A stretch of DNA of 54,826 nucleotides, taken from a virus (Duplodnaviria; Heunggongvirae; Uroviricota; Caudoviricetes). Position 1 is the first letter of the stretch. Each line of letters opens with the position of its first letter. The stretch lies in IMG/VR virus record IMGVR_UViG_2687453585_000002; one strand, given 5' to 3'. The translations under genes were made by a program, and so were the position numbers. The notes under the pieces are model-generated. The model ran no database searches, had not been told where the DNA came from, and saw only the letters and a list, made by a program, of their open reading frames with translations. Below are positions 26,901 to 31,635 of this stretch, piece after piece.

Positions 26901-28838
26901 GTGACTCTTAAACGGGCCTGTTCCCTGCTGACGGTGAAATCCTTCAGTGAGGATGAACGGGTGATCACCGGGATTGCGTCAACGCCTTCTCCGGATCGGG
27001 ATGGTGACATCCTGGAGCCGGAGGGCGCGGAGTTTGGCAGTGCGATCCCGTTTCTCTGGCAGCATGACCATTCCCGCCCGGTGGGGCAGTGTACGGTGCG
27101 CCGGGTCAGCGAAGGGCTGGAAATCACGGCAACACTGGTGAAGCCCGTACCGGATATGCCGTCGCAACTGGCTGCCCGGCTGGATGAGGTCTGGGCGGCC
27201 ATTAAGACCGGGCTGGTCAGGGGGCTGTCCGTGGGCTTCCGTCCCCATGAATACACCTTTCTGGACGGAGGCGGACTGCATTTTCTGCGCTGGGAACTGA
27301 TGGAGGTGTCTGCCGTCACCGTGCCCGCGAATGCGGAATGCACCATCCGGACCATTAAATCTTACGACCGCCCGTTTTCTGCCGCGTCCGGCAACCGGAA
27401 ACCGGTGGTGAAAATCGCATCTTCTGCCGGCGCTGCGGCACAGTCAACAACCGTTTTTCATAAGGAAAAGACCATAATGAATATTGGCGAACAGATTAAA
27501 AGTTTTGAAAACAAGCGTGCAGCGCTGGCAGCCTCCCTTGAGGAGGTCATGACCAAAGCCGCAGAGGAAGGGCGCACGCTGGATGTGGAGGAGGAAGAGC
27601 ATTACGACAACACCGCAGCGGAAATCCGTCAGGTGGATGCGCACCTGAAGCGCCTGCGTGAACTGGAAGCCGGTAAGGCCGCCACGGCGCAGCCGGTGAA
27701 ACAGGCCGGTAACGGGAATGTGGCCGCGGTGGCTTCTGCGCCGGTGATCCGTGTGGAGCAGAAACTGGATAAGGGGATTGGCTTCGCCCGCTTTGCCAAA
27801 TCGCTGGCTGCGGCTAAAGGCGTCCGATCTGAAGCCCTGGAAGTGGCCCGTCGTCAGTATCCGGATGACAGTCGTCTGCATCATGTCCTGAAATCGGCAG
27901 TGGGCGCGGGGACCACCACGGATCCGCAGTGGGCAGGCAGCCTGTCTGAATATCAGGAATACGCACAGGACTTTATTGATTACCTGCGTCCGCAGACCAT
28001 TATCGGGCGATTTGGTCAGGGCGGGATCCCTGCACTTCGTCAGGTGCCATTCAATATCCGTGTGCACGCCCAGGTGTCCGGCGGTGCTGCCGGCTGGGTG
28101 GGTGAGGGTAAGGCAAAACCCCTGACGAAGTTTGATTTTGAATCCATCACCTTCAGTCATGCGAAGGTGTCGGCCATTGCGGTACTGACGGAAGAATTGA
28201 TCCGTTTTTCCAGTCCGGCTGCTGATGCACTGGTCCGTAATGCGCTGGCGGAAGCGGTGGTGGCGCGTCTGGATACAGACTTTGTGGACCCGAAAAAAGC
28301 CGCAGTGGCAGATGTCTCCCCGGCGTCCATCACCCATGATGTGAAGGGCACGGCATCAACCGGTAACCCGGATGCGGATGCAGAGGCTGCGTTTGGACAG
28401 TTTGTGGCAGCAAACCTGCAGCCCACCGGTGCGGTCTGGCTGATGTCCAGCACCAATGCCCTGGCACTGTCCATGCGTAAAAATGCGCTGGGTCAGAAGG
28501 AATACCCGGACATGACCCTGCTGGGTGGCTCCTTCCAGGGGCTGCCGGTGATTGTCTCCCAGTACGTGGGTGACCAGCTGGTGCTGGTGAATGCCCCGGA
28601 TATTTATCTGGCGGATGACGGCGGCGTGGCAGTGGATATGTCCCGCGAGGCATCACTGGAAATGCAGTCTGAGCCGACCGGCGACAGTACCACGCCGTCC
28701 CCGGTGGAGCTGGTTTCCATGTTCCAGACAGGCAGCGTGGCCATCCGTGCGGAGCGCTGGATCAACTGGCGTCGTCGCCGTACTGCGGCGGTGGCGGTGA
28801 TCACCGGAGTGAACTACGGCAGTGCGTCCGGCGGCTGA
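26901..28838 (+). CDS. fused prohead protease (HK97/S78-type) and major capsid protein (HK97 fold)
   Basis: N-terminal protease-like region (PFLWQHD...VPANAECTI), central coiled-coil, C-terminal HK97-like capsid region; GTG start with AGGAGG RBS. Confidence 0.75.
   Translation: MTLKRACSLLTVKSFSEDERVITGIASTPSPDRDGDILEPEGAEFGSAIPFLWQHDHSRPVGQCTVRRVSEGLEITATLVKPVPDMPSQLAARLDEVWAAIKTGLVRGLSVGFRPHEYTFLDGGGLHFLRWELMEVSAVTVPANAECTIRTIKSYDRPFSAASGNRKPVVKIASSAGAAAQSTTVFHKEKTIMNIGEQIKSFENKRAALAASLEEVMTKAAEEGRTLDVEEEEHYDNTAAEIRQVDAHLKRLRELEAGKAATAQPVKQAGNGNVAAVASAPVIRVEQKLDKGIGFARFAKSLAAAKGVRSEALEVARRQYPDDSRLHHVLKSAVGAGTTTDPQWAGSLSEYQEYAQDFIDYLRPQTIIGRFGQGGIPALRQVPFNIRVHAQVSGGAAGWVGEGKAKPLTKFDFESITFSHAKVSAIAVLTEELIRFSSPAADALVRNALAEAVVARLDTDFVDPKKAAVADVSPASITHDVKGTASTGNPDADAEAAFGQFVAANLQPTGAVWLMSSTNALALSMRKNALGQKEYPDMTLLGGSFQGLPVIVSQYVGDQLVLVNAPDIYLADDGGVAVDMSREASLEMQSEPTGDSTTPSPVELVSMFQTGSVAIRAERWINWRRRRTAAVAVITGVNYGSASGG

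Positions 28839-31635: not shown

Follow-up and report, generated by a model that had tools for sequence, protein, structure and literature searches.

The 54,826-nt virus sequence IMGVR_UViG_2687453585_000002 (Caudoviricetes), the whole of which we refer to as the window, carries between positions 26,901 and 31,635 a gene for a fused prohead protease and capsid protein and, behind it, an open reading frame (ORF) of 861 aa that is named as a portal protein. Judged by its sequence, this region is the head-gene block of long-tailed Shiga-toxin (Stx)-type prophages of Escherichia coli, and it is ordinary and very common. The overall explanation that we favour, and which we consider probable, consists of three parts: a protease-capsid gene, a portal gene fused to its downstream neighbour, and a fibre-like nature of this neighbour, which in the following will simply be called X. 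The features of the block are collected in Table 1.

Table 1. Features of the head-gene block, with positions in the window
Feature	Position	Strand	Basis
Terminase large subunit (TerL), first gene of the block	25176..26837	+	Pfam TerL_ATPase, TerL_nuclease; upstream of the protease-capsid gene in relatives too
Prohead protease S78, coiled-coil delta-like segment and HK97-fold major capsid protein, 645 aa	26901..28838	+	Pfam, NCBIfam, phrog_617
Internal Shine-Dalgarno-like AAGGA (27462-27466) and in-frame ATG 27477 (Met193), proposed nested capsid start	27462..27479	+	Sequence; conservation
Small ORF, 73 aa	28883..29104	+	phrog_829, E=3.7e-39; RefSeq hypothetical protein
Portal portion (residues 1-454) of the 861-aa fusion, equivalent to the whole portal gene in relatives	29050..30411	+	PF04860, TIGR01537
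G6 tract, read as ancestral G5 (Shine-Dalgarno-like AGGGGG of X) plus one G	30395..30400	+	Alignment with phage 1717
Gene X, 407 aa, fibre-like; read here as residues 455-861 of the 'portal' ORF	30412..31635	+	Stand-alone homologs; own Shine-Dalgarno motif and ATG kept
Tandem repeat, 3.3 copies of a 162-bp (54-aa) unit, variable stalk of X	30637..31169	+	Tandem Repeats Finder
C-terminal beta-rich domain of X with CBM5/12-like module (~31480-31548), proposed tip	31195..31632	+	AlphaFold2, Foldseek, Pfam
gp6-like head-tail adaptor Ad1	31632..31958	+	PF05135; annotation

By the same evidence, the family consists of widespread HK97-like lambdoid prophages and includes the Stx phages 2851, 1717, YYZ-2008 and BP-4795 (Pankowvirus, Marienburgvirus). 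Of 5426 complete E. coli genomes, 1246 contained the block, frequently more than once, and the DNA of the head region was 93-100% identical in about 94 phage records, including 2851, YYZ-2008, 1717, WGPS6 and the Stx1a/Stx2c series. Both large ORFs gave full-length PHROG matches, the protease-capsid ORF to phrog_617 and the 861-aa ORF to phrog_2271. RefSeq names them 'phage major capsid protein' and 'phage portal protein', respectively.

The portal/X junction and the added G

The fused ORF (29050..31635, plus strand) starts with ATG and spans 2586 bp. In its first part, PF04860 (Phage_portal) matched residues 54-382 with 272.6 bits against a cutoff of 39.1, and TIGR01537 gave 349.4 bits against 112. 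Past residue 382, nothing was recognised at the curated thresholds of Pfam and NCBIfam. With 861 aa the ORF exceeds the portal norm of about 400-500 aa, and the excess is gene X.

Important insight was gained by comparing the window with phage 1717, from which it differs at the junction by one base: the window reads TTCAGGGGGGATAC, with six Gs (G6), whereas phage 1717 reads TTCAGGGGGATAC, with five (G5). In the G5 state of phage 1717, a 454-aa portal ORF stops at the TGA of AAAATGA and a 407-aa ORF begins at the ATG of this same overlap. The same two-gene layout was found in BP-4795, where X measures 461 aa, and in the Salmonella phage FSL SP-016. Junction states were then counted in IMG/VR with an exact-pattern scan, which returned 100 loci, two of them unrelated and 98 on target. 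G5 was present in 57 and G6 in 41 of the 98. Among complete-genome records of E. coli, the exact 74-mer across G6 occurred in 747 and the 73-mer of the 1717-type G5 in 152. Thus, both states are real and common.

More distant relatives were collected by scanning the portal part against one genome per species, which resulted in 39 loci from other genera or classes. Their portal identity was 49-70% in Enterobacterales, 47-54% in Alphaproteobacteria and 59% in one contig of a metagenome-assembled genome labelled Chitinophaga. X was a stand-alone gene in 39 of 39 distant and in 57 of 98 close relatives, and a portal frame running into X was seen in none of the 39. Intact portal frames in these relatives span 446-525 codons from stop to stop. 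The start of X overlaps the portal stop as ATGA or TGATG in 31 of the 39, and its ATG is preceded, at a distance of 11-13 nt, by a purine-rich stretch (AGAGGA, AGGGGG or GAAAGG). Because motifs resembling a Shine-Dalgarno sequence (SD) occupy the same place in the relatives, the G run can be identified as the SD of X, located inside the last codons of the portal gene.

Altogether, these comparisons make it very likely that a portal gene was fused to a separate downstream gene X by one added G, and that the split state is the ancestral one. The G added to the SD run of X would let the portal frame read through into X, thus producing an 861-aa portal-X chain. No G6 locus with a readable X has lost either the ATG of X (30412) or the SD-like run. 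Since both are retained, free X is probably still made, and G6 phages would be expected to make both the portal-X chain and free X. A similar layout is found one gene further downstream, where the ATG of the adaptor overlaps the stop of X (ATGA) and is preceded by AGGAGG. Given that both stop-start overlaps are accompanied by SDs, portal, X and adaptor appear to form a translationally coupled chain.

The direction of the change was also visible in a neighbour-joining tree calculated from 800 nt of flanks of 57 haplotypes. This tree roots in G5, shows G6 in derived clades and requires about seven state changes. Five G5 singletons lie inside G6 clades, compared to zero deviants inside G5 clades (Fisher p=0.02). 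Regarding selection, the ratio of nonsynonymous to synonymous polymorphism (pN/pS) of X, computed on sequences of the length ladder described below only, was 0.20 in the fused and 0.215 in the split state, which indicates purifying selection in both.

Two points weigh against this account of the junction. Firstly, the five G5 singletons could be homopolymer miscalls rather than reversions. Secondly, phi330, the sole purified plaque-forming phage of the G6 lineage that was found, has a 2-nt indel ahead of the G tract as well as several other split genes, and was therefore set aside as a test of the viability of the fused portal.

The record of phi330 (PV189401.1) was obtained by Sanger sequencing and assembled manually. 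It shows G6 together with the 2-nt indel about 60 nt upstream (about 4440-4530). The indel ends the portal at 444 aa, and the gp10-like, major tail and X genes are also split in this record. This reflects either sequence errors or a compensating mutation.

Gene X: stalk, tip and possible roles

The repeats lie within X. Tandem Repeats Finder reported a period of 162 with 3.3 copies, 95% matches and zero indels, and the three full units are 94-97.5% identical in pairwise comparison and in frame with the ORF. Each 54-aa unit consists of two half-units of about 27 aa, in which the motif IPxPxDG(K/R) is followed by a helix. Among close relatives, X measures 245, 299, 353, 407, 461, 515 or 569 aa, in steps of exactly one 54-aa unit, and its stalk accordingly ranges from about 0.3 to 6.3 repeat copies. 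This ladder is found in both G states. Off the ladder, only a few half-unit variants (379 and 405 aa) were detected, and 7 of 73 copies were truncated. We attribute the ladder to unequal recombination between the near-identical 162-bp repeats, as this process yields such a pattern.

The original prediction, made from the window alone, had described near-identical 54-aa repeats in frame and interpreted them as a repeat expansion inside a conserved portal gene. The repeats were recovered, and the comparison across related prophages that it proposed showed the variation in copy number just described; the expansion itself, however, belongs to the separate downstream gene. It had further considered that the C-terminal extension might be a gene of its own, which would speak against its reading. 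As the extension is separate in the relatives, this is the case in evolutionary terms, although literally the window holds a single ORF.

Across the family the plan of X is constant and consists of an N-terminal helix, a variable middle and a conserved C-terminal domain. The middle is built either from the helical half-units or, in four of the distant loci, from collagen-like G-X-Y runs; the X of the window has no such G-X-Y repeats. The C-terminal domain ends with ...PVMIYRGVF..G..Y..GDTVTWGGSLWHC...KPG...W.LA.KRGRDG. Distant homologs were obtained with a profile built from non-E. coli homologs. As stand-alone genes of about 290-635 aa they occur in Klebsiella, Enterobacter, Cronobacter, Salmonella, Pantoea and Rhizobiales. 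A single-sequence protein search with X returned nearly exclusively near-identical E. coli contig-end fragments and zero distant relatives, and a sequence search of the PDB gave nothing beyond weak similarity (E of at least 0.015) to designed helical repeat proteins. No NCBIfam model matched X. The name of a gp6-like connector, which has been given to homologs, was considered for X and rejected, as the Pfam scan of X and eight homologs detected no Phage_connect_1 signal.

The X homologs of Alphaproteobacteria contain an extra conserved beta module, GVGLAGALIDRxGELVVTLTNGETRxLGPVVGxDG, in the interval between stalk and tip. The module occurs once or twice (twice in one locus) and is absent from E. 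coli X. In Microvirga lenta, the portal gene and the X homolog (6039-7049) are separated by a 241-aa Cys-rich ORF resembling HNH endonucleases (5286-6011), apparently a mobile insertion into an otherwise fixed gene order.

AlphaFold2 was used to predict X as a monomer. The models show a long N-terminal helix at residues 3-52, with a predicted local distance difference test score (pLDDT) of 75-88, which is probably a coiled coil, and a stalk of nine short helices with 12-residue loops between them. A model of the tip only resulted in a confident beta domain (mean pLDDT 87.7). For the repeat domain, whose structure the original prediction had proposed to model, the helix-loop units are thus predicted at low confidence, and with a pLDDT of 45-65 their arrangement is unreliable.

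Using Foldseek, the tip showed a weak but consistent resemblance to CBM5/12 chitin-binding domains and to the tips of phage tail fibres, in no case with an E-value better than 2e-3. The comparison with 2d49 gave a TM-score of 0.70 on the target and a root-mean-square deviation of 1.9 A over 47 columns (E=0.08), and Serratia ChiB was matched with 27-28% identity over about 54 residues. X also matched the tail-fibre proteins of the Agrobacterium phages 7-7-1 and Milano (PDB 9rkv, 8fqc) and, in BFVD, phage proteins with collagen repeats and ChiC_BD. Pfam CBM_5_12 (PF02839) matched nine of nine X homologs scanned, mostly below the curated cutoff; one homolog exceeded it with 28.3 bits. Another homolog passed the Collagen model PF01391 with 30.2 bits (cutoff 27.2).

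From sequence and models, X looks like a trimeric phage fibre with a glycan-binding tip. In its succession of helix, repetitive or collagen-like stalk and small beta-rich tip, it resembles T4 fibritin (wac), the head fibre gp8.5 of phi29, the collagen-like gp12 of SPP1 and the tips of 7-7-1 and Milano. No sequence homology to any of these fibres was detectable. In T4, wac adjoins neck genes, and X likewise adjoins neck genes. The helical stalk of 27-aa half-units (IPxPxDG...) has no characterised counterpart among the phage fibres compared. Regarding function, we tentatively suggest, with somewhat less than even confidence, that X could be a low-copy trimeric fibre of the head or neck, exposed on the outside, which would bind surface glycans and aid adsorption. 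This suggestion, the weakest part of our account, is based on the position of X next to neck genes, on its coupling to the low-copy portal and on the precedents of T4 fibritin, phi29 and SPP1 gp12.

Several observations argue against an external fibre with such a tip. The stalk was modelled at low confidence (pLDDT 45-65); neither the full nor the tip-only model of X had a Foldseek match in the PDB at E<=1e-3; and the X of the window scores 21 bits against CBM_5_12, below the cutoff of 26.2 (E=3.3e-4). Most importantly, portal C-termini lie inside the capsid in all solved portals. As they point into the head, the X part of a fused chain would be internal, which is a poor fit to an external fibre unless X is cut off or free X alone is used. 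Within the head, the X part of the chimera would either be tolerated owing to a flexible linker (…DPFASAGKTVSSQLPDGASDGNKAISETEHD…) or be removed by the prohead protease, and free X would carry the normal function in G6 phages.

The same topology leads to a serious, if rather unlikely, alternative, namely that X is an internal head protein bound to the portal, comparable to SPP1 gp7/MuF or to ejection proteins. This would be the most natural account of a tolerated fusion to the inward-facing portal C-terminus that is generally known from solved portals. It would also agree with the tight coupling of X to the portal gene in every relative, with equal selection on X when fused, and with the great success of the fused lineage, which comprises 747 complete-genome records and includes particles or named isolates such as 2851, vB_EcoS-783R2 and phi330. 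MuF proteins, such as SPP1 gp7 and Mu gpF, are encoded right after the portal gene and are either free or fused to the portal C-terminus; X shares both the position and the two states. Unlike MuF, X has a fibre-like and not a globular architecture. In Pfam scans of X and eight homologs, the Phage_Mu_F domain was not found even at E<=1, and neither MuF (PF04233) nor another signature of internal proteins was detected. Furthermore, collagen-like stalks, a rapidly varying stalk length and a carbohydrate-binding type of tip are hallmarks of exposed fibres, and since X has kept its own SD and ATG, free X could function while the fusion is merely tolerated.

In the broadest form of the fibre interpretation, X would represent an uncharacterised class of portal-coupled head/neck fibres with a repeat-tuned stalk and a CBM5/12-type tip, distributed from Stx phages to prophages of Rhizobiales, and the G6 state would be a viable portal-fibre chimera. 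This we regard as speculative and rather doubtful. In such a chimera, twelve fibre chains would sit inside the head or be cut by the prohead protease. If true, the G6 phages would be a natural experiment in the re-routing of a virion protein, toggled by a short G tract.

We found no study in the literature on this portal, on X or on the virion proteome of this phage group; in the paper on phi330, mass-spectrometry peptide maps are given only for short-tailed phages. As a separate observation, the major tail protein of the window (33169-33885) carries a C-terminal immunoglobulin-like domain at residues ~149-227 (Pfam Ig_3, Ig_2, I-set), which by sequence is a possible second surface-glycan-binding decoration in the same virion module.

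Other explanations for the junction

Instead of a mutation that separates two genotypes, the G tract could be a site of programmed slippage, ribosomal or transcriptional, so that both genotypes make portal and portal-X in a set ratio, in the manner of the G/GT tail chaperones. The position would be suitable, as the G run lies 11 nt before the portal stop and a glycyl-tRNA on GGG could re-pair one base back in G5 or one base forward in G6. In addition, the next codon in the G5 state is the rare ATA, and the tract has changed state about seven times in the sampled tree. Against this, the run is not conserved: most Enterobacterales relatives have AGAGGA, and the alphaproteobacterial ones GAAAGG or the like, sequences that resemble an SD but are not slippery. 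G5 and G6 are also short for transcriptional slippage, the canonical in-frame heptamer X XXY YYZ is absent from the sequence, and a stimulatory structure was not found downstream, where only a weak, chance-like 5-bp stem (30414-30431) was detected. Because the run is not conserved in relatives, programmed frameshifting was rejected as the main explanation and we consider it improbable.

The opposite polarity, which is the one built into RefSeq and comes near to the original prediction, takes the 861-aa protein as the original long portal and the two-ORF versions as frameshifted pseudogenes. Database labels agree with it: the G5 locus of the O157:H7 strain 7636 is called 'phage portal protein, frameshifted' by the annotation pipeline PGAP, the phage records H97 and H112 mark the portal as a pseudogene, and phrog_2271 is a profile of 859 positions that describes the fused form. 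This reading is nevertheless very hard to maintain. In all 39 relatives portal and X are two genes, the start of X overlapping the portal stop and being provided with an SD; the tree places G5 at its base; and the isolated phages BP-4795 and FSL SP-016 carry the split form. Moreover, purifying selection on X is equal in both states, and a perfect ATGA overlap followed by an open frame of 245-569 aa across dozens of haplotypes is unlike a pseudogene.

Finally, the repeats or the G6 tract might be artefacts of assembly or sequencing, as the original prediction had itself considered for the repeats. In favour of this, tandem repeats and multi-copy prophages often break or collapse in short-read assemblies, and many of the copies in databases are fragments at contig ends. 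In practice, however, an artefact can be dismissed: at least seven independent complete chromosomes of E. coli share the 2586-bp ORF at 100% identity, the exact 74-mer across G6 is present in 747 complete-genome records, every variant in copy number preserves the frame by changing in 54-aa steps, and the G state tracks phylogeny.

The protease-capsid gene, its surroundings and annotation of the family

The 645-aa ORF begins with GTG at 26901, 5 nt behind the SD AGGAGG. Pfam placed Peptidase_S78 at residues 48-152 and Phage_capsid at residues 386-635. In the case of the protease, PF04586 was passed with 34.7 bits (cutoff 21), and the stricter equivalog model TIGR01543 gave 46.5 bits, under its cutoff of 59. 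In the case of the capsid protein, 53.1 bits for PF05065 (cutoff 24.2) and 78.1 bits for TIGR01554 (cutoff 27.5) place it among the HK97-fold capsid proteins. H55 (in LWQHD) and S110 (in GLSVGF) are invariant across 35 family sequences. These residues may be the equivalents of His65 and Ser114 of HK97 gp4.

Most of the 39 relatives encode protease and capsid protein in one stop-free ORF of about 640-745 aa; in three the two parts are clearly separate, two loci are incomplete, and one shows a late frameshift. The gene order of the block is equally conserved: TerL, protease-capsid, portal, X and gp6-like adaptor follow each other wherever the locus of a relative extends far enough upstream. As the order is the same across relatives, the position of the capsid gene ahead of the portal gene is a trait of the family. 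The original prediction had pointed out both the one-ORF fusion and the gene order. Both were confirmed in the window, with Pfam and NCBIfam domains in agreement, but from the sequences they are family-wide and already named, and not peculiarities of this locus.

A conserved feature was detected inside this gene, at the junction between protease and capsid parts. A Met is kept here in every lineage, followed by the start of the delta domain (MNIAEQIKSFE... or MKTIAEQIAALE...), and the SD-like motifs in front of it are AAGGA, AAGGAG or GGAGG among the relatives. An SD-like motif with ATG was present at the junction in 32 of 34 relatives, compared to a frequency of 14.5% among the remaining in-frame ATGs of these ORFs. 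We therefore looked upon this motif as a likely nested start, at ATG 27477, for the capsid protein alone. GTG 26901 would yield full-length protease-capsid chains and Met193 the capsid protein with its delta domain alone. The shell would then be assembled from many plain capsid subunits and a few full-length chains, and the latter would carry the protease into the procapsid. The motif is conserved as described, and from it we infer both products and their ratio. The conserved internal start would be a simple, testable answer to the question of how a fused protease stays low-copy in the shell. We found no report in the literature of a conserved internal SD and ATG in a protease-capsid fusion gene.

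A long protease product together with a shorter, abundant in-frame product that shares its C-terminal assembly part is known from C/Nu3 of lambda and UL26/UL26.5 of herpesviruses. The conserved SD and ATG at 27462-27479 imply a similar layout, here from sequence alone. Unlike in C/Nu3, the two products would have the capsid protein and its delta domain in common, and not a separate scaffold.

Protease-capsid fusions as such have been noted before, namely in the Arthrobacter phage clusters AM/AU (PMC5513430), and the tripartite capsid gene of Gifsy-2 is, as far as it is cited in PMC8538268, an experimentally studied fusion (Effantin et al. 2010, Virology 402:355). Like the Gifsy-2, Arthrobacter and NF045541 fusions, the window has one gene for protease, scaffold-like segment and HK97-fold capsid. 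The protease of Gifsy-2 is said to be ClpP-like and not of the S78 type. Against NCBIfam NF045541 ('prohead protease/major capsid protein fusion protein'), the window protein scored 54 bits with a cutoff of 525, so that it lies outside this family despite the same architecture.

Compared to the head module of HK97 (gp3 portal, gp4 S78 protease, gp5 capsid with delta domain), the same three families pass the curated cutoffs of the hidden Markov models. As in HK97, there is no separate scaffold gene, a coiled-coil delta-like segment lies ahead of the capsid fold, and gp6-like, head-closure and gp10-like genes follow. Unlike HK97, in which the order is TerL, portal, protease and capsid, the window shows TerL, protease-capsid and portal, with protease and capsid in one ORF and the extra gene X between portal and gp6-like adaptor.

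Between the capsid and portal genes lies the 73-aa ORF. As originally predicted, it exists and overlaps the portal start, by 55 nt. It is found by tblastn at the same position in all Enterobacterales relatives and is absent from the alphaproteobacterial ones; no NCBIfam model matched it. The portal start, which had been called ambiguous because of this overlap, is in fact well defined: a GGAG motif lies 8 nt upstream of ATG 29050, RefSeq uses the same start, and relatives align from residue 1.

Two hairpins were observed in the spacers. A perfect 9-bp GC-rich hairpin at 28853-28874 (GGGAGGCG...CGCCTCCC) lies between the capsid stop and the 73-aa ORF, with a folding energy of -22.1 kcal/mol (z=-3.3 compared to shuffles) and no T run. 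Going by its sequence, it could set the ratio of capsid to portal expression, which is of importance here because the capsid gene precedes the portal gene. The other, a terminator-like hairpin at 26862-26889 (7-bp stem, then TTTTTATTTTC), is located between the terminase stop at 26837 and the SD/GTG of the protease-capsid gene. Its position is within what is presumably a single late operon; antitermination may allow read-through, or the hairpin may serve as an mRNA end or stabiliser.

In conclusion, databases already contain this module, the fused protease-capsid gene and the 861-aa 'portal'. What appears to be undocumented is that the long portal is a one-base chimera of a portal and its fibre-like neighbour, that X represents a conserved family, so far uncharacterised, whose stalk is tuned by repeats, and that the capsid gene has a conserved nested start. 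The apparent chimera has practical consequences, as the 861-aa 'phage portal protein' is the annotation reference for thousands of E. coli and Stx-phage genomes. The two-gene G5 state is annotated as 'frameshifted' or as a pseudogene, for example in NZ_CP038421.1 (2501-5085) and in the phage records AP012540 and AP012538, and stand-alone X homologs bear inconsistent names ('phage portal protein', 'gp6-like head-tail connector protein', 'Carbohydrate binding domain' or hypothetical). A corrected annotation changes which O157 prophages count as intact. Current understanding of phage assembly is not overturned by these findings, whose value is practical for annotation and whose biological interest is modest. 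For the long-tailed Stx phages, they point to X as an unstudied, strongly conserved protein of the virion module and, in view of its carbohydrate-binding type of tip and its repeat-tuned length, as a candidate accessory adhesin.

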